Of a stretch of 64,000 nt of DNA, positions 30,187 to 39,780 are shown one piece after another. Both the position numbers and the translations under genes were made by a program. This stretch comes from Pseudomonadota bacterium. Its GTDB lineage: Bacteria > Desulfobacterota > Desulfobacteria > Desulfobacterales > RPRI01. Position 1 is the first letter of the stretch, and every line of letters starts with the position of its first letter. The stretch lies in NCBI GenBank assembly GCA_043825875.1, contig JBDRRF010000049.1, positions 27,904 through 91,903 on the forward strand, written 5' to 3'. The notes beneath the pieces are model-generated. The model had not been told where the DNA came from. It saw only the letters and a list, made by a program, of their open reading frames with translations, and ran no database searches.

Positions 30187-30474
30187 TCATGCAGCTTCAA
30201 TCCGTTTTAAATTTTCAATATTAATAGATTTTCTTGTTTTCCAGAGATCGTATTGAATCTGGAGTCTGAGCCATCCTTCAGGTGTGCGGCCAAATACTTT
30301 TGATAATCTTAATGCCATTTCAGGGCTAATGCCTGATCGACCATTTAACAGCGCTGAAAAAGTTTTTCTTGTAACCCCAAGTTCTCTGGCTGCATCCGTT
30401 ACATTAATTTTTAGTGCCTCAACACAAAACTCTCTTATGATCTCGCCCGGATGTGGCGGATTATGCATAGCCAT
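30187..30474 (-). CDS. higA: HigA-family antitoxin
   Basis: [38 protein letters not shown]. Confidence 0.93.
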
Positions 30475-30483
30475 TTTTTCTCC

Positions 30484-30762
30484 TTAATTATGACCTTCAT
30501 AATTTACATCAAAGGCATCGCCGTTTTGAATCTTAAACGTAATACGCAAATACCTGCTTACATTAACTGCCCAAGTATCTTTCTTCTTATCTATAACCGG
30601 ATGCAATCCAAGGCCAGGCAAATCCATATCTTCGACAGTTTCAGCTGTTTCAAGGAGAGCTATAATTTCCCTGACTCGCGTTATATGCTGAGGAATGATA
30701 TAATTCGATGTATCAGATTCGTAAATTAACCAAAGCCCTTTGTATGTGAAATTTTTAATCAT
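30484..30762 (-). CDS. higB: HigB-family (RelE-like) toxin, diverged
   Basis: MIKNF..KGL, DMDLPG..LHP and W.V.V...RITF; lies upstream of higA. Confidence 0.85.
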   Translation of the reverse strand: MIKNFTYKGLWLIYESDTSNYIIPQHITRVREIIALLETAETVEDMDLPGLGLHPVIDKKKDTWAVNVSRYLRITFKIQNGDAFDVNYEGHN

Positions 30763-31109: not shown

Positions 31110-31416
31110 ATGAATGATAAATATGGTCGGAATGAAATTCTTTCATACCTGCAAGAAAACAAAGACCGGCTTTGCAGTAAATTTTCTCTCGAACGAATTG
31201 CCCTTATCGGTTCTATTGCGCAACGACTATACGGATGGAAGCGATGTGGATTTAATCATACGGTTCCGGTCTGGTACGGAACGGATTCATGATTTAAAGC
31301 AACAGTTAAGAGAAGAACTTGAATTGGTGTTTGGTCGGCCGGTCCAGCTTGCATCAGAAAAATACTTGAAACCATATTTTCTACAACAAATTTTAAAGGA
31401 TGCCATGAATGTTTAA
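31110..31416 (+). pseudogene. Frameshifted minimal nucleotidyltransferase (MntA-type antitoxin)
   Basis: One frame reads ..ERIALIGSIA and continues in another as RNDYTDGSDVDLII..LELVFGRPV (GS..D.D motif split near 31218). Confidence 0.82.
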
Positions 31417-31509
31417 AAATGATCTGAAGTTTGACAAATCATTCAGGACGATATCCTGCCACTTAATACAAACATCAAAAGCCCAATAGAAGCTTTTCAA
31501 AACACTTGA
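31409..31509 (+). pseudogene. Internally deleted HepT/DUF86 toxin remnant
   Basis: An overlapping start MFKNDL joins directly to EV*QIIQDDILPL, a DUF86-type C-terminus with W changed to stop. Confidence 0.55.
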
Positions 31510-31544
31510 AAAGGAAACTTCCGAACACAGGGAACTTTACATTT

Positions 31545-31582
31545 TTAATCATGTATGATTTTCTCCGGCAAACCGGTTTTGC
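31545..31582 (-). pseudogene. 3'-end remnant B of the same unidentified gene
   Basis: Encodes KTGLPEKIIHD*, matching KSGLPDK and KQGLADK of the other remnants. Confidence 0.5.
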
Positions 31583-31676
31583 TTTCAATAGTGAATGAAA
31601 ATTATTGAGATTGAATACCGGAATTCCGTTTACAGAATACATTTAAATTAATTTTTTCAGCAAAAAGGACTCAGGA

Positions 31677-32063
31677 ATGGACAAAGGACATGAAGAATGG
31701 TTAAAGCAATCAGAATACGACATAAAAACTGCAGAAGCCATGTTTGTTGCCAAAAGGTATATTTATGTTGTTTTTATGTGCCATTTATCCATTGAGAAAT
31801 CCCTTAAAGGTCTGTATCAGAAGAAGCTTGAAAAGCTTCCACCGAAAGTTCATAATCTTCTTTTTCTTATTGAGACTGTTGGTTTGAAATTGCCGGATAA
31901 TTTATACGAGGCGGTTTTTTCTCTCAATCGGGCAAGCATTCCGACACGTTATCCTGAAGATCTGAAAAAAATGCAAAAAGACTATCCAAAGCGTATAACC
32001 GAAACATTACTTGTCCAGAGCAAGGAGGTGTTGAAATGGCTCAAAAAAGAGCTGAAGAAGTAG
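31677..32063 (+). CDS. HEPN-domain protein
   Basis: EWLKQSEYD..TA, FMCHLSIEKSLKG, PPKVHNL..L and TRYP; overlaps the downstream MNT gene. Confidence 0.9.
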   Translation: MDKGHEEWLKQSEYDIKTAEAMFVAKRYIYVVFMCHLSIEKSLKGLYQKKLEKLPPKVHNLLFLIETVGLKLPDNLYEAVFSLNRASIPTRYPEDLKKMQKDYPKRITETLLVQSKEVLKWLKKELKK

Positions 32064-32368
32064 TCCAATTTTTATTTGATTGCTTAGAAGAAAAAAAACT
32101 GAATATCTCCAAGATTATTATCTTCGGTTCACAGGCTAAAGGCACAGAAACGGAAGAAAGTGATATCGACATTATTATTGTTTCAGAAGATTTTAAAAGG
32201 AAGAATATTTTTAAGCGCGCTGATATGACAAAAGATGCCGAAATCAGGACAATCAGGAAATTCATGGTTCCTCTCGACATTATTACTATAACACCGGAAG
32301 AGTATGAGAATAAGACATCTCTTATCGCAGAATATGCGCATACAGGGAAAATTGTATATGCAAATTAA
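32036..32368 (+). CDS. Minimal nucleotidyltransferase (HEPN-MNT pair)
   Basis: IIFGSQAKG...ESDIDIIIVSEDF and PLDIITITPEE. Confidence 0.9.
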   Translation: MAQKRAEEVVQFLFDCLEEKKLNISKIIIFGSQAKGTETEESDIDIIIVSEDFKRKNIFKRADMTKDAEIRTIRKFMVPLDIITITPEEYENKTSLIAEYAHTGKIVYAN

Positions 32369-32585: not shown

Positions 32586-34019
32586 TTAGCGACCAAGGCG
32601 AAATTCAACTACTTCGCCTTTTGATTCTTTAAGCGTCTCGGAAAATTGAAGATACGGTTCCTGAGAATCCTGGCCGGTATCATACCCTATTCTCTGAGTT
32701 TCATTCTCAGGATTTTTGCCTCGAACTGCAAAATTTTCAATTTCCTTTTGCATAGAAGATTGATTCTGTTTGGATGCAATTGCAACATAGAAGCGTTCCT
32801 CGTTTAACTCTTCGTCAAAAAAATATTCAGCCGGAGATGGTGGAATCTCAACAACTTTGCCCTGTTTTACAGGATAGTCTTGGCGGCCTGATAATATTTC
32901 TTCAGGTCTTGGCCATAGCAGTTCAATATTTTTACCGGGTTTTTTATGGAATATATAAAGGTTCCCGTCCTGACCGGGCATAACCTCAAAACGGAATTTA
33001 TCTCCCTTCACAAATGGGTGGTCAAATTTTACTATGCGAGTACCATTTTTCCGGATCAATTGGACTGCAATCTTTGACCTGTCACCATGTGGTTTCTTGG
33101 TATCAGTTTCCCCGGAGATCATATTTACCTGCGGTTTATCCTGTTTTCTGTCACCCGTTGCCGAAAAATTATTTTGAGCCGTGTTATTCAGCTTATCAAG
33201 CGGACGAAATTTGTAAGCAAGAACTACAATGCCCTTGGCCTCTATTACCATTTTCTTATCAGTATCAAGCCGAAGCTCGCTGCTGATCTCCGCAGCCTGC
33301 TCATTCTTATCATTTGATTGGAAAATTTTGTCAATTTTTCTAAGAGCATTTTCTTCAATGTTTTTTCGTGCTTCGGCAGAGGTGCCGCTTTTCCAGTTGA
33401 TTTCAAAAATGATAGAATCGGCAACAACTGCTTCCTGAATCACCTTAATCCAGCCAAGCTTGTCTCCATCAGCTAAAGCATTTCTCAAATCATTTACACA
33501 TTGGTCGGAAAATTTCCTTGATATATCAAGCTTTGCAAAAACTATCGATTGTATGTTGCCAAATTTGAGCGAATAATCTGCTACTGTTTTACTGTCAAGT
33601 GCAAGATCAGGTAAGAGCGCTGCCATACTTTTAGCGCCTGCTTTAAATTGTGCAGAAGATGATCCAATATAGTCAGGAAGAGTAAAAGGCGCTTTAACAG
33701 GTTCTTTGTCAGGAAAACAGTCCTTTCCGGAAAGAACAAGGATAGGAATATCAAGCGGCACTTCCTTGCCGTCTTGCATTTGTATAACCTGAATTATATT
33801 TCCCGGCAGATATATTCCTGAAAAACCATGGTTGACGGTATAGCCCTTTTGCTCCAAAAATTCAAAAACATCATCAAGTCCCTGCTTTTGAACGTTTATT
33901 TTCATCGAATAAAACAGATATAGAACAATGAACAGCATTATAATTCCGCCCCAGATCAACAAAACCTTACGGATCTTATTTGTATTTTTTTTTGAACTTG
34001 ATTTATCCTTTCTTGCCAT
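32586..34019 (-). CDS. Membrane-anchored gasdermin-like domain protein with C-terminal DUF4384-like domain
   Basis: Basic N-tail and TM (aa 19-37). Aa ~47-275 carry bacterial gasdermin-like motifs (FLEQKGY..YLPGNII; KVIQEAVVADSIIFEI; MVIEAKGIVVLAYKFRPL). Aa ~316-417 match DUF4384 (F..GDKFRF....DG.LYIF......LLWP, EIP, E.FYV). GGAG RBS present. Confidence 0.68.
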   Translation of the reverse strand: MARKDKSSSKKNTNKIRKVLLIWGGIIMLFIVLYLFYSMKINVQKQGLDDVFEFLEQKGYTVNHGFSGIYLPGNIIQVIQMQDGKEVPLDIPILVLSGKDCFPDKEPVKAPFTLPDYIGSSSAQFKAGAKSMAALLPDLALDSKTVADYSLKFGNIQSIVFAKLDISRKFSDQCVNDLRNALADGDKLGWIKVIQEAVVADSIIFEINWKSGTSAEARKNIEENALRKIDKIFQSNDKNEQAAEISSELRLDTDKKMVIEAKGIVVLAYKFRPLDKLNNTAQNNFSATGDRKQDKPQVNMISGETDTKKPHGDRSKIAVQLIRKNGTRIVKFDHPFVKGDKFRFEVMPGQDGNLYIFHKKPGKNIELLWPRPEEILSGRQDYPVKQGKVVEIPPSPAEYFFDEELNEERFYVAIASKQNQSSMQKEIENFAVRGKNPENETQRIGYDTGQDSQEPYLQFSETLKESKGEVVEFRLGR

Positions 34020-34046
34020 GAAAATCTCCTCTCTAAATCTTCAGTT

Positions 34047-37000
34047 TTATAACCAGTTACCCATGAGTATAAATGGCGCCCAGTAATATGGATGCGAATA
34101 TGAAGTAGCTTTACTGGTTTCGTCTGAAGTATTTGCAACTTTCTTGCCGGTTGAATATCCGATTCGTTTTTCTTTGGAACCGCTCTTTTCCTGTCCGGCC
34201 AATCCCCTGATAAACTGAATCTGTGTTTTTTGAAGAGCTTCAGCCTTGGTAAGCCCTTCTGAGGTTCGCAGGGCATACATGGTCTTCATAAACAATCCAG
34301 TACTTCGATCCGCCACCGGCCAGAGAGTAGCAAGCACTCCTTTTGCACCTTTGTTTTGTGCCATAGCGCCAAACCCTTCGATTTCCTGGCCTTTGGCATT
34401 TGAACCCATGGCTGTATTGCAGGCGGAAAGAGTAAGTAGATCCACATTCGGGAAAGCATATGTATTTCTGATTTCTAACAGACTTAACTTTTTACCATCA
34501 CCCAGAATCAGGTTGGAAAGCGACTCATTGCCTGGTTTGAAATCAAAATGACTGGCAATATGCAGAACCGGATAAGCCTCTAATAATGCATCCTGCAATG
34601 CCTGGATAGTAAATTTTTCATCAAGAGAAATAGTACCGGCAAGTACGCCATCCTGATCAGTATTGTTTTCGCGGACTATCCCCTCTAACTCGTTTTTGAC
34701 AGATGGCAGGGCACAAAAGCCTGGAACCGCTTTTGTTATCCCTAATCCTGCTACTCGCCATTTTATTTGCTTTTGATCATTTTTCAATTTATCTCTTGCT
34801 GCTTCGGTAAATAACACCAGTTGAAACTCTTCGGCCAGATACTTATTGCCGTCATGCAGAGCAGCCATCGGCATATAACGCAGTGCTCCGTCCAGGGAAA
34901 GCATGATAGTACCAGCCTTGGCCTGATGCAGATCATCAATTACCGGCCCCAATAGGTATCCGTATAATTCCCTGGCTGATGGTAGTGGATCACTTTTGGG
35001 ATTGCTGATAGTGTCTCGGAAGGAAAATATCTTTCGATTCAAATCTTTTTCGCTAATAGGATACTCTCGTGCAAGCTGAACATTCGGTGTTGTGAGTAAA
35101 ATTCTAAGCTTATCTTTCAACATAAAAAAATGAACCAGCACAGCTCCATGACCAAGATCTTTCAAAGTAGACTGAAGCCCGGTAAGAGTTTTTAAATTTC
35201 TGGCAAGAATCTCATCTCTTTGCTCCTGGCTTATATTGCCAATACCTGCTATAAGTTCATCCACACATTTATTAAAAGCCTTAATAGCATCCGGAAGGAT
35301 TTTGAACTTTAGTGTACGTAACTGTTCTTTTTCATCAGCAGACAAATTTCCTTTTTTCTGTTTTTCCTCAAGCTCACCAACCTTATGTCCCAATGCAGCC
35401 AAATGGTCGCTTATTTTTTCATATCTCTTCTTAAAACTTTCTTCCTCTTCGGTATATTGAACTTGCGTCAGCCTGTTGTCACTTGTTGAATCCCGCCGGA
35501 TAAAATCAAAATATTCCTCTTCCTTGAGAATAGCCAATACCTGAGATGCTTCGGCCAGCCTCCCCTGATCAATGAGCAGGTCAGCAAGGCCCTTATAGAC
35601 ATACTCCTTCGTGAGCAGGAAACTTTTTTGTGTTTCTTTCTCAAGGGATGCAATATTCTGACGCATTTGTTGTATGCTATTAACCGACTGTTTGCCAAAA
35701 AAGATAGCTGCTTCGGGTTTATCAATACCTGCGAAAACAATACATAACCATTCTTGAATTACTCTAAGCGTATCTGGCTCTCCTCCTTGCTGTGCAATTA
35801 GAAGAGCTTTTTTCAATAGTATTTCTGCTTCTAAAAAGCGGTCAGTATGATAATACAATACAGCCAGATTGATCATGCTACAAACTATATCCGGATGATC
35901 TTCACCAAAAACCTTTTTATTAATTTCCAATGCTTTCTTATACATGTGTTCAGCCTCATCGTAATGACCTATATTACTATAGAAGATAGCCAGATTATTC
36001 ATGCCTGTAGCTACATCCGGGTGTTCTTCACCAAGGATTCTCTTTCGAATCTCCAAGGAATTCTTTAATAAGGGTTCCGCATCCTCAAAGCGTTCCATTT
36101 CAACATATAATAAGGCCAGATTATTCATAGTATAAGCTACATTCGGATTCACTTGACTGTATATTTTGTTACATAGTGCCAGAGATTTCTTAAATAAGGA
36201 TTCGGCATCCACATAGCGGCCCATTTCATGATATAACAAGGCCAGATTATTCAATGTATTAGCTACATCCGGGTGTTCTTCACCAAGAGTTTTCCTGCGA
36301 ATTTTCAAAGCTTTCCTAAACAAAGGTTCTGCATCACCGTAACGTCCTGTTGCATAATACAGTGATGCCAGATTATTTATACTATGAGCTACATCCGGAT
36401 GTTCTTCGCCAAGAGTTTTCTTGCGAATCTCCAGGGCCTCCTTAAGCAAAGATTCGGCATCACTATAACGTCCTTTATGCATATTAATAGCCAAATGCGA
36501 ATGTTTATCTCCAAGAACTTTCTTGCGAATCTCCAAGGCCTGTTTATACAATGATTCAGCTTCATCATAGCGGCCTGTTTGATAATACAATGCTGCCAGA
36601 TTGCACATACTTTCTGCTATGTCCGGGTGCTCTTCACCAAGAGCTTTCTTGCGAATCTCCAATGCCTGTTTATACAATATTTCAGCTTCATCATAGCGAC
36701 CTGTTGAATCATACAACACTGCCAGATTATCCATACTTGTAGCTACTTCCAGGTGCTTACTACCGAAAACTTTCTTGCGGATCTCCAGAGCCCGCCTTAC
36801 CAATGACACCGCTTCATCATAGCGGCCTGTTGAATCATATAACCTTGCCAGATTACTCATGCTTTCTGCTACATCCGGGTGATCTTCACCAAGACTTTTC
36901 GTGCGAATCTCCAAACCCCTTTTCGCTAAAGACTCACCCTCAGCATAACGCCCCATTGAATCATATAATTTTGCCAAATTATTCAAACTGGCAGCTACAT

Positions 37001-37430
37001 CCAAATTATTATCTCCAAGAAGCTTTTTACGCATTTCTAATGCACTTTTATGCAAAGTTTCAGAATCACTATATCGGCCGGTTTTTTCATACAACACCGC
37101 CAGATTGTTCATGCTGGCAGCTACATCCGGATGCTCATTGTCAAATATTTTCCTACGAATATCCAGAGCATGCTTATACAAGGGTTCAGCTTCGCCGTAA
37201 TGGCCTGTTGAATAGTACATTTGTGCCAGATCATCCATGCTTTTAGCTACATCCGGGTGTTTATCCCCGAGGGTTTTCTTATTAAGTGCCAAGGCTTGCT
37301 TCAATTCTTTAATTTTTTGTTGTGAAGAAGGAACAATACCTCTACTGGATGATTCCTGAGCCTTTGCATATAACGGTATTAAAAAGATAATAAGAATTAT
37401 CAAACCAAATGAGTTGAATACTCTTTTCAT
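34047..37430 (-). CDS. Signal peptide + TPR array + CHAT (caspase-like) protease
   Basis: Sec-type leader ending AKA-Q; 42 aa TPR repeats; CHAT motifs SLDGALRYMPMAALHDG, LHIASHF (His), LTLSACNT (Cys), LATLWPVAD and HPYYWAPFILMGN. GAGGAG RBS. Confidence 0.93.
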   Translation of the reverse strand: MKRVFNSFGLIILIIFLIPLYAKAQESSSRGIVPSSQQKIKELKQALALNKKTLGDKHPDVAKSMDDLAQMYYSTGHYGEAEPLYKHALDIRRKIFDNEHPDVAASMNNLAVLYEKTGRYSDSETLHKSALEMRKKLLGDNNLDVAASLNNLAKLYDSMGRYAEGESLAKRGLEIRTKSLGEDHPDVAESMSNLARLYDSTGRYDEAVSLVRRALEIRKKVFGSKHLEVATSMDNLAVLYDSTGRYDEAEILYKQALEIRKKALGEEHPDIAESMCNLAALYYQTGRYDEAESLYKQALEIRKKVLGDKHSHLAINMHKGRYSDAESLLKEALEIRKKTLGEEHPDVAHSINNLASLYYATGRYGDAEPLFRKALKIRRKTLGEEHPDVANTLNNLALLYHEMGRYVDAESLFKKSLALCNKIYSQVNPNVAYTMNNLALLYVEMERFEDAEPLLKNSLEIRKRILGEEHPDVATGMNNLAIFYSNIGHYDEAEHMYKKALEINKKVFGEDHPDIVCSMINLAVLYYHTDRFLEAEILLKKALLIAQQGGEPDTLRVIQEWLCIVFAGIDKPEAAIFFGKQSVNSIQQMRQNIASLEKETQKSFLLTKEYVYKGLADLLIDQGRLAEASQVLAILKEEEYFDFIRRDSTSDNRLTQVQYTEEEESFKKRYEKISDHLAALGHKVGELEEKQKKGNLSADEKEQLRTLKFKILPDAIKAFNKCVDELIAGIGNISQEQRDEILARNLKTLTGLQSTLKDLGHGAVLVHFFMLKDKLRILLTTPNVQLAREYPISEKDLNRKIFSFRDTISNPKSDPLPSARELYGYLLGPVIDDLHQAKAGTIMLSLDGALRYMPMAALHDGNKYLAEEFQLVLFTEAARDKLKNDQKQIKWRVAGLGITKAVPGFCALPSVKNELEGIVRENNTDQDGVLAGTISLDEKFTIQALQDALLEAYPVLHIASHFDFKPGNESLSNLILGDGKKLSLLEIRNTYAFPNVDLLTLSACNTAMGSNAKGQEIEGFGAMAQNKGAKGVLATLWPVADRSTGLFMKTMYALRTSEGLTKAEALQKTQIQFIRGLAGQEKSGSKEKRIGYSTGKKVANTSDETSKATSYSHPYYWAPFILMGNWL
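35800..37262 (-). repeat. About 12 tandem 126 bp TPR-coding repeats (kinesin-light-chain type)
   Basis: HPDVA.S.NNLA.LY...GRY.EAE.L.K.ALEIRKK.LGE recurs; GCTACATCCGG and TTGCGAATCTCCA recur at 126 nt spacing. Confidence 0.9.
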
Positions 37431-37520: not shown

Positions 37521-37565
37521 CAAACACAAAAGCCCCGTACTTCAATTATATGAAGATCGGGGCTT
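37521..37565 (-). terminator. Intrinsic terminator-like hairpin in the leader of the CHAT operon
   Basis: Minus strand AAGCCCCG-ATCTTCA-TATAAT-TGAAGTA-CGGGGCTT followed by TTGTGTTTG. Confidence 0.6.
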
Positions 37566-37826
37566 AATTGTATCCGGCCATATTAAATCCTTTTAAAAGT
37601 GTAGAATTAAAATGAGATAGCGGATTATATACTCCTGGAAATACCTAATAACTCAACTTGTATAGTGAACAACAATACATGATTTTCGCTAACACTTTGC
37701 TTTGGTTAAATCAACTGTATTTTATATAGAACTGTAGAATTATTGATTCACTATTTTGATTAGATAGCCTGAATAATCTGAGATTTCATATAGACTGATT
37801 TGTGTTTTGTATTGTAAGGATATTTT

Positions 37827-38277: not shown

Positions 38278-39780
38278 CTATCGATCAAGCTTTGATTTCA
38301 ACATCGCCAAATTGCGGCGTGCACCGGGATCCTTTGGACTTAGCTGAATGGCCTTGTTGTAATCAGCAATCGCCTCATTGATATTGCCCTTCATTCCCAA
38401 ATAGAGTCCTCGGCCAGAATACGCCCTGAAATCATTCGGTTTCAATTGAATGGCTTTACTAAAATCACTTATCGCCTCGTCAATATAGCCGTCTTCACCA
38501 AAAGAACTTCCCCTGGCATAGTATGCTTCAACATATCTTGGATTTATTTGAATGGCTTTACTAAAATCACTGATAGCTTTATCAGTATATCCTTTTATTT
38601 GTAAATAATAACCCCGAGCATAATACGACATAGCATAATTTGGTTTTAGTTGAATAGCTTTGCCATAGTCAGCTATTGCCCGGTCATATTCTCCTTTTTT
38701 ACCCCAAGAGTTCGCCCGGCCGTAATATGCTTTTTCAAATTTTGGATTTATTTGAATTGCCTTGTTATAATCAGCGATCGCCTCATCAAAATCGCCCTTT
38801 TCATCAAGATAGAAACCCCGTCCGTAATATGCTTTAACATAATTTGGTCTTAACTGAATGGCCTTACCATAATCAGTGAATGCCTGATTGTAATCGCCTT
38901 TTCTACCCCAGGCGTTTGCGCGATAGTAATATGCCTCAACATAATTTGGATTTAACTGGATGGCCTTGCTATAATCAGTAATTGCTTTATCATAATTACC
39001 TTTTCTGCTCCAGGAGTATCCACGGCCATAATATGCCTTGGCATCATCTGGATTTAATTGAATAGCTTTGTCATAGTCAGCGATTGCCTGGTTAAAATCA
39101 GCTTTTTTGCGCTGGAAGAAATCCCGGCTATAATATGCTTTTGCATAATTTTGATTAATTTGAACGGCCTTGTCATAATCAGTTTTTGCCTTGTTATTAT
39201 TACCAGTGTTTAGCCAATATAATCCACGGTTGTAGTATGCATGAGAGTACTTTGTGTTTATTTGAATGGCCTTGCTGTAATCGGCAAATACCTTGTTGAA
39301 TTGATTCGTAAGCAGGTAACTGTTGCCCCGGTACAAATAAAATGCGGGGATCTCTACTATATTAATGGCTTTATCAAAGTGTTCAACAGCCATATTAAAC
39401 TCTTTGTTTCTATATGCATTAACGCCTCTTTTATATATATCAAGGGCTCTTTCTTTGTCTTTTACTAGCTTACCTTTATATTTCTTGTCTATTTCACTTT
39501 CTACTTCTTGCTGAGTGGGCAAGTATAATTTGCTCAGTAATATATTATTCTTTTGAGCATTATATCTTGCGGAGGAACTTTCGATTAATATGAATTTATC
39601 AATCAAAGGATAGGCTGCATTCAACAAAATAATGATTCCGGCAAAAATAAAAATTCGTTTAGTTAATATTTTTGTTGCGGCTTGTTTGTCTATCTTTATA
39701 TTTTTATTGTAGCCGAGCCATAAAATCAGAGTGCCTGTAACAATAACTGTAAAATTAATTATTAAGATAATTACGTTCAT
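38278..39780 (-). CDS. Membrane-anchored TPR protein (2 TM + about 11 34-aa TPRs)
   Basis: Two hydrophobic N-terminal helices; repeats AYY.RG..W..KG.YD.AIADY.KAIQLNP. Confidence 0.9.
   Translation of the reverse strand: MNVIILIINFTVIVTGTLILWLGYNKNIKIDKQAATKILTKRIFIFAGIIILLNAAYPLIDKFILIESSSARYNAQKNNILLSKLYLPTQQEVESEIDKKYKGKLVKDKERALDIYKRGVNAYRNKEFNMAVEHFDKAINIVEIPAFYLYRGNSYLLTNQFNKVFADYSKAIQINTKYSHAYYNRGLYWLNTGNNNKAKTDYDKAVQINQNYAKAYYSRDFFQRKKADFNQAIADYDKAIQLNPDDAKAYYGRGYSWSRKGNYDKAITDYSKAIQLNPNYVEAYYYRANAWGRKGDYNQAFTDYGKAIQLRPNYVKAYYGRGFYLDEKGDFDEAIADYNKAIQINPKFEKAYYGRANSWGKKGEYDRAIADYGKAIQLKPNYAMSYYARGYYLQIKGYTDKAISDFSKAIQINPRYVEAYYARGSSFGEDGYIDEAISDFSKAIQLKPNDFRAYSGRGLYLGMKGNINEAIADYNKAIQLSPKDPGARRNLAMLKSKLDR

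Follow-up and report, generated by a model that had tools for sequence, protein, structure and literature searches.

The closest described counterparts of the system presented here are the bacterial gasdermins (bGSDMs). As far as the accessible parts of the reports go, a short C-terminal peptide keeps a bGSDM inactive, the Runella protein being cut after L247 (bioRxiv 10.1101/2021.06.07.447441), and the palmitoyl group just ahead of helix 1 is believed to insert into the membrane and drive pore formation (PMC10153256). The available portions of further articles report a bacterial caspase cutting R-G (PMC12642450), exported prokaryotic metacaspases with N-terminal helices or signal peptides (PMC3501461), and DUF4384 as a domain that is often fused to proteases and forms the C-terminal domain of some CHAT substrates in the Csx30 context (bioRxiv 10.1101/2022.08.17.504292). 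The DNA analysed here, referred to as the window, is a stretch of 64,000 nucleotides from a bacterium assigned to Desulfobacterota (GCA_043825875.1, contig JBDRRF010000049.1, positions 27,904 to 91,903), and its minus strand encodes a gasdermin-fold protein together with a TPR-CHAT protease. A first-pass annotation had placed this pair at 33498..37430 and had put both proteins outside the cytoplasm, unlike described gasdermin systems. The right end of that interval stands, while the left one falls on the codon of Cys174 within the gasdermin gene, which runs to 32586. The extracytoplasmic location is borne out as a prediction, which for both proteins is drawn from hydropathy, charge bias, lipobox patterns and conservation.

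The gasdermin-fold protein (477 aa; 32586..34019, on the minus strand as are all features of the two genes) is a predicted membrane-anchored protein with a fused DUF4384-type domain. Its gene starts 27 nt past the stop codon of the protease gene, with AGGAG at 6 nt before the ATG. A single transmembrane helix is predicted at residues 19-37 (33909..33965; hydropathy 2.56, the runner-up segment reaching 1.13) behind a Lys/Arg-rich tail, in which residues 1-19 include eight Lys or Arg and one acidic residue. The gasdermin-fold domain follows at residues 43-279 (33183..33893). A linker and the DUF4384 domain, together about 200 residues, take the place of a short inhibitory tail; the DUF4384 core (residues 336-417; 32769..33014) lies within a C-terminal partner domain of approximately residues 315-477 and matches Pfam PF14326 with E 4.7e-6, which sits at the Pfam cut-off. 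In the same domain, the R443-I-G-Y loop (32682..32693), aligned to the R-G-[VIL] motif of relatives, is a candidate cleavage or docking loop. The protein has only two cysteines, Cys101 in KDCFP (33717..33719) and Cys174 in DQCV (33498..33500), and none at its N-terminus.

Sequence libraries did not name the gasdermin-fold domain. For residues 43-279 neither Pfam (in a set without PF26164) nor the other libraries gave a family, and both PDB sequence searches returned nothing useful; the lead from the ESM Atlas was a bGSDM. The full-length model was poor, with a predicted local distance difference test (pLDDT) score of 49.4 and most of the C-terminal domain below 50, and the domain was then refolded with an alignment of 28 family sequences. 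The resulting AlphaFold model of residues 43-279 has a pLDDT of 82.1 and a predicted template modelling (pTM) score of 0.79. Foldseek placed gasdermins at all of ranks 1-17 (best 7n52, E 7.2e-7, template modelling (TM) score 0.45), and the exhaustive VIA alignment against 48,161 chains did so at ranks 1-12 (best Z 9.6, rmsd 4.9, 188 aligned). Judged by the model, the fold of this domain is that of a gasdermin and the relation is real but distant, which agrees with the gasdermin-like character first read from the sequence. Finger 1 keeps the bGSDM pattern of an alternating strand, a helical tip and a second alternating strand. The PADLOC bGSDM model matched two of the 28 members (best E 1.7e-3), not the window protein, and the window's own genome contains no match above the bGSDM family cut-offs. 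A PADLOC match to Cas6b in one of the 28 (E 4e-4) was dismissed as chance given the fold results. A three-copy complex prediction (score 0.12, mark 0.42) weighs neither way.

The protease (1127 aa; 34047..37430) was taken from the list of open reading frames (ORFs) and shows ten Pfam TPR_12 matches followed by a CHAT domain at residues 817-1125 (34056..34982; PF12770, E 4e-52). The motifs HIASH and LSAC contribute H961 and C1004, assigned as the His-Cys dyad by the CHAT family pattern; with this pair intact behind a TPR array, the protein has the complete TPR-CHAT layout. Its N-terminus, MKRVFNSFGLIILIIFLIPLYAKA followed by Q, is a predicted Sec signal peptide (residues 1-24; 37359..37430) with cleavage between AKA and Q. 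The best 19-residue segment (residues 4-22) reaches a hydropathy of 2.34 and no later one exceeds 1.35; the ATG has a Shine-Dalgarno site, AGGAG at 10 nt before it, and a similar leader is present in the homologue at locus L002. The cleavable leader assigned to the protease in the first-pass annotation, the basic tail and single helix of its partner, and the partner's two cysteines were all read correctly. The TPR unit around residues 312-322 of the protease (window ~36460-36500) is shortened in frame, as if part-deleted. The letters R-I-G-Y also occur in the protease's own C-terminal loop, and close CHAT relatives (L013/L033, L014/L034, L029/L032), which are exported or lipid-anchored, carry an Arg-hydrophobic motif in this loop (RGV, RGI, RAT; RIG in the window protease).

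The anchor is a property of the family. A HMMER profile search over 1.84 billion representatives at 50% clustering found 113 relatives of the gasdermin domain, of which 35, truncated or aligning late, were set aside from anchor scoring. A helix or lipobox lies ahead of the domain in 74 of the 78 scorable relatives (60 of the helix or signal type, 14 with a lipobox pattern, although the one in P0113 probably represents a helix that follows a cytoplasmic domain). Of the four relatives scored as lacking an anchor, three show a hydrophobic helix beyond the scored stretch and the fourth starts within one. A second search used a metagenome DNA pattern from inside the domain and was blind to the anchor; 27 of its 30 matches are family members, likewise anchored, and the other three (L038, L042, L050) were dropped as chance. 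The anchor segment is present in all 28 scored sequences (22 DNA-pattern loci, the window, two genome loci and three proteins), with a 15-residue hydropathy of at least 2.0 in 27 of them versus two of 140 background segments. Lys and Arg are more numerous before the helix than after it in 24 sequences and equal in four. Three canonical bGSDMs from the same phylum, used as controls, are all without a hydrophobic leader (0.89-1.41) and begin at helix 1, two of them with MC; they extend 55-60 residues beyond the last strand. Two caspase-like ORFs adjoining these controls lack a leader as well.

The orientation of the helix is indicated by the domains that some relatives carry in front of it. Among the 35 long relatives scanned, TIR/SEFIR was found in six, CHAT in one and EAD1 in one, in every case before the helix. 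Modules of these types act in the cytoplasm, and such N-terminal fusions support an N-in, C-out topology. The order TIR/SEFIR, one helix, gasdermin fold occurs in P0032, P0053, P0054, P0091, P0097, P0102 and L062:286-1596, with DUF4384 added in P0053, and in its predicted form it is receptor-like, resembling the layout of a membrane-spanning receptor. In a divergent subgroup (P0099, P0107, P0108, P0109, P0113, P0115, P0118, P0121) the helix is preceded by a conserved N-terminal domain of ~120 residues, which had no Pfam match in the five members scanned; these proteins seem to be without helix 1 of the gasdermin domain. The gasdermin-fold and protease domains are predicted to be extracytoplasmic, that is periplasmic, a topology that at the level of sequence is well supported by comparison.

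Both cysteines are invariant in the 28 sequences and are kept in 86 of the 88 relatives that cover both columns. The own genome encodes two VKOR proteins, one of which (G000:C58:2359-3480, 422 codons) shares its ORF with a DsbA-like domain, the second VKOR gene being located on contig C22; DsbB was not found in this genome. Since the pair is near-invariant and VKOR genes are available, a disulfide can plausibly form, and the C101-C174 bond, at first proposed as a possibility, appears likely. In the model each of the two residues lies in a short helix of the palm and away from the fingers, which favours a structural bond over a redox gate and makes the redox gating suggested at first pass doubtful.

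The third element of the system, not recognised as such in the initial reading, is the DUF4384-type domain, fused or encoded by the next gene in 27 of 30 loci. One of the three loci without it has 234 bases of flank, and the other two are near-duplicates in which a Sel1-repeat gene follows. In most relatives this partner is a separate protein with its own export leader, and RG[VIL] is present in 25 of 31 aligned partner tails. A caspase-family protease was identified in the fetched DNA of 14 of the 30 loci, weakly in one more, and in all eight loci for which 4 kb or more was available on each side, whereas the background was ten caspase/CHAT matches in the 4.77 Mb of the own genome. An export-like leader is present in each of the 11 proteases whose N-terminus is visible, and of these only the decayed copy of L002 does not keep both His and Cys. 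The protease itself is interchangeable: C14 caspases serve in most loci, and at least six distinct gene arrangements occur. TPR-CHAT lies upstream in the window and in L002, a WD40-caspase upstream in L052 and convergent in L005 and L043; caspase ends are seen also in L063 and L037, a caspase upstream in L059, two caspases downstream in L061, and a divergent M48 peptidase with a caspase in L036, L035 and L058. The divergent operon of the last three loci is conserved and composed of exported proteins, namely the M48 peptidase with TPRs, the C14 caspase and a small TPR protein. In L061 a lipoprotein-type protein with a phage lysozyme domain (L061:2287-2982) is divergent to the gasdermin operon. 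The initial interpretation stands in part; it missed, besides the conserved and usually separately exported DUF4384 protein, the interchangeability of the protease and the TIR and other modules located before the helix in some relatives.

The distribution of the family is patchy. The gasdermin domain was found in two of 401 genomes of the class, the own genome included, and none of 60 related genomes matched the protein; word-index homologue searches gave only three and four proteins, and automatic pattern scans gave one locus in genomes and none in metagenomes, viral contigs or plasmids. In the closest paired locus (L002:1729-5924, from a Desulfobacteraceae metagenome-assembled genome) the protease gene has a stop and a frameshift and has lost the catalytic Cys, and the gasdermin gene has a frameshift near its start. 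The DNA immediately downstream of the two genes (window 30187-30762 and 31114-32368) encodes a HEPN-nucleotidyltransferase pair, a single nucleotidyltransferase and a putative HigBA-like pair, and these surroundings are toxin-antitoxin-rich. The patchy occurrence, the joint decay in L002 and the toxin-antitoxin-type neighbours suit a costly defence locus. On the other side, 100 bases upstream of the protease start, an inverted repeat (aagccccg ... cggggctt; window 37530-37567) followed by a T-rich run on the minus strand is terminator-like. Located 850 bases upstream (window 38278-39780, minus strand) is a gene for a 500-aa protein that has two hydrophobic stretches at its N-terminus as well as ~10 TPRs; this protein is a possible membrane sensor and was not seen as a conserved neighbour.

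Building on the gene anatomy, the fold, the anchor and cysteine pair kept across the family and the set of three components described above, we propose that the proteins work as a switch in the periplasm: cleavage of the DUF4384 part by the protease would likely allow the anchored gasdermin to oligomerise and breach the inner membrane from outside; we give this reading a probability of about 0.5. The helix, or the lipoprotein cysteine in some relatives, would replace the palmitoyl anchor of bGSDMs, so that the protein would be pre-docked on the outer face of the inner membrane in the inserting orientation. The end of the domain model aligns in VIA with residue 232 of the Runella bGSDM, and 70 of 91 relatives end no more than 15 residues past the domain, so that they look pre-cleaved. 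As most members end where a cleaved bGSDM ends, the DUF4384-type domain would provide the restraint, as a fused part of the window protein and in trans in other members; if pre-cleaved relatives make pores, another restraint is needed, and the DUF4384-type partner, being constant, suggests itself as the candidate. The TPR, WD40 or other repeats of the protease may sense an envelope cue, e.g., a phage ejection protein or damage, and envelope surveillance, as envisaged at first pass, fits such repeat-bearing exported proteases. A cut at the Arg-containing partner loop or in the 280-315 linker would then lift the restraint, leading to membrane depolarisation and to the death or arrest of the attacked cell.

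Several observations weigh against this switch. Pore formation by the anchored domain is a prediction only. The likeness to bGSDMs is distant: Foldseek TM-scores range from 0.38 to 0.45, a profile comparison with the three control bGSDMs gave E 0.053 over finger 1 only, and the NCBIfam model NF051890 matched weakly in three of the 28 members (best E 1.8e-4) and not in the window protein. The fingers differ as well, finger 1 having 35 residues in all 28 members versus 44 in all three controls and finger 2 being longer (52-64 versus 48 residues); the finger 2 helix has hydrophobic residues at every fourth position with charges between, a poor fit to a membrane strand. The HMMER profile contained the helix and possibly favoured anchored relatives, and the 28 domains are not independent, as they collapse into 22 clusters at 70% identity and seven at 50%. 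At the partner loop the window protein has R-I-G-Y and not R-G. The caspase gene of some loci is convergent or lies on the opposite strand at a distance of 2.8 kb. Finally, the four closest CHAT relatives are exported (all three visible starts have leaders) but adjoin other exported partners, and none of their four loci contains the present gasdermin-fold domain. This makes CHAT one recruit among several and means that pairing does not prove cleavage; the exported CHAT protein would be a general module recruited by the gasdermin system.

A second reading, in whose favour the departure of the fingers from bGSDM also counts, is signalling across the membrane. Proteolysis might trigger arcs or rings that form no lethal pore and instead cluster the helices together with cytoplasmic modules (TIR, CHAT, EAD1-type adaptors, or a partner on the basic tail). 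The eight of 35 long relatives with TIR/SEFIR, CHAT or EAD1 before the helix speak for this and against the pore, as do the other subgroup with its unnamed ~120-residue domain and, in the accessible text, the precedent of the periplasmic TPR-CHAT protein DdvA (PMC11506125). Against it, a short basic tail is all that most members, the window protein included, carry in front of the helix; the loci share no conserved gene for a cytoplasmic effector, and the N-terminal modules are equally explicable as cytoplasmic inputs to a pore. We consider signalling possible, though less likely than the pore, and in view of the TIR-helix-gasdermin fusions we keep such a role open beside the pore model.

It is improbable that the family forms a non-lethal envelope channel or scaffold, i.e., a ring for export, uptake or remodelling (located in the outer membrane in lipoprotein members), and that the caspase acts as a maturation enzyme. 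The lack of a cis inhibitory tail in 70 of 91 relatives, the lipobox-pattern members and the shortened finger 1 would suit such a ring, but the patchy distribution, the decay of L002 and the TIR/EAD1 fusions do not, and no conserved cargo or transporter gene accompanies the loci. Still more doubtful is an outward weapon, in which the protease would shed the gasdermin from its helix to perforate competitors, predators or eukaryotes, DUF4384 being a binding domain as in pyroptolysins or CDC-like proteins. Gasdermin-fold toxins acting from outside do exist, according to the available part of the report (bioRxiv 10.64898/2026.10.05.756811), and the leaders of a few relatives are of the signal type and not of the anchor type. 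However, the stretch from helix to domain is ~10 residues without a conserved cut site, the cytoplasmic fusions imply a membrane-spanning resting state, and no conserved immunity or secretion gene was seen in the loci; the outward action raised in the first-pass annotation is also at odds with a helix of the uncleaved type and with the failure to recognise a receptor-binding domain. A misread topology, with true starts downstream or an N-out helix and the pair being an ordinary cytosolic gasdermin system, is very improbable, as internal ATG codons exist but good Shine-Dalgarno sites stand at both first ATGs (AGGAG in each case), and the helix kept in 28 of 28, the charge bias, the lipobox members, the separate leaders on partner and protease and the invariant cysteine pair speak against this reading.

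Extended from the window to the whole family, the periplasmic switch would amount to a widespread, undescribed periplasmic pyroptosis, in which a pre-docked, disulfide-stabilised gasdermin perforates the inner membrane of the producing cell from its outer leaflet, restrained by an inhibitor exported on its own and triggered by envelope-watching exported caspases, some members being wired to cytoplasmic TIR enzymes. We put this extension forward tentatively, at somewhat less than even odds. If it is true, immune sensing and execution in bacteria would shift to the envelope, the first site reached by phage ejection, predators and injected effectors, and the family may show how gasdermin restraint is supplied in trans. 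The exported bacterial caspases, noted since 2012 without substrates, would gain a concrete candidate substrate, and DUF4384 a testable role.

Among the known systems, pyroptolysins (in the accessible text of bioRxiv 10.64898/2026.10.05.756811) also have a bacterial gasdermin fold outside the cytoplasm and a second C-terminal domain. They are gasdermin-CDC chimeras acting on sterol-containing target membranes, whereas the present family would sit anchored in the membrane of its producer, on the periplasmic side, and have exported caspases of its own. Pyroptolysins are soluble and have no anchor, in contrast to the basic tail and helix found here and the cytoplasmic fusions of relatives; they carry a C-terminal CDC-like beta-sandwich that targets membranes, whereas the C-terminal domain of the window protein, poorly modelled in the full-length prediction, matches DUF4384 in Pfam, with no recognised CDC domain. 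The words periplasm, lipoprotein and DUF4384 do not occur in the part of the pyroptolysin text available. DdvA of Myxococcus xanthus is similarly a TPR-CHAT protein of the periplasm tied to anti-phage defence, but it acts as an anti-sigma factor in the membrane, for which self-cleavage has been proposed, while the window CHAT protein has a cleavable-type leader and a gasdermin-fold neighbour; the word gasdermin is not present in the accessible DdvA text (PMC11506125). The leader of the window protease begins at residue 1, leaving no place for the cytoplasmic zinc anti-sigma domain of DdvA-type proteins, and no sigma-like ORF that could be a cognate ECF sigma gene was recognised in the 26-45 kb region on reading the ORF list, eight ORFs of which were Pfam-scanned. 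CDCL proteins (PMC11952106, available sections) are extracytoplasmic, protease-activated pore formers of a related fold, but they are secreted as antibacterial toxins of two components and have their activation loop at the N-terminus, and their structural match (8g33; VIA Z 6.3, rmsd 5.4, 149 aligned) is weaker than that of the gasdermins.

The metacaspase and Csx30/DUF4384 articles, in their accessible parts, draw no link to a gasdermin-fold effector, unlike the gene set of the window. No anchored or periplasmic gasdermin family with exported caspases was met in the literature searched, which left supplements and most subscription papers outside; the unannotated gasdermin-like clusters of PMC10584675 could include members of this family, and the text of that article, as far as available, mentions no anchor. 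The nearest comparison remains that with the bGSDM systems (PDB 7N50-7N52; both bGSDM reports cited above, in their accessible parts). Common to both are the gasdermin fold, a neighbouring protease of the C14 or CHAT type that carries TPR or WD40 repeats (here a CHAT ORF 27 nt upstream, and a protease in all eight well-flanked loci), and a membrane anchor immediately ahead of helix 1. bGSDMs are soluble and cytoplasmic before activation, whereas the present family is predicted to be periplasmic and anchored (74 of 78 against none of the three controls), with a helix or lipobox instead of a palmitoylated cysteine, an exported protease, no 20-30 residue inhibitory tail, an extra DUF4384-type component and an invariant cysteine pair. 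As judged from sequence, the window protein is bGSDM-like in build but outside the bGSDM family, having no N-terminal cysteine and no short inhibitory tail and falling below the sequence cut-offs. The set represents a real, conserved and apparently undescribed variant of the gasdermin-caspase theme, predicted to be extracytoplasmic.

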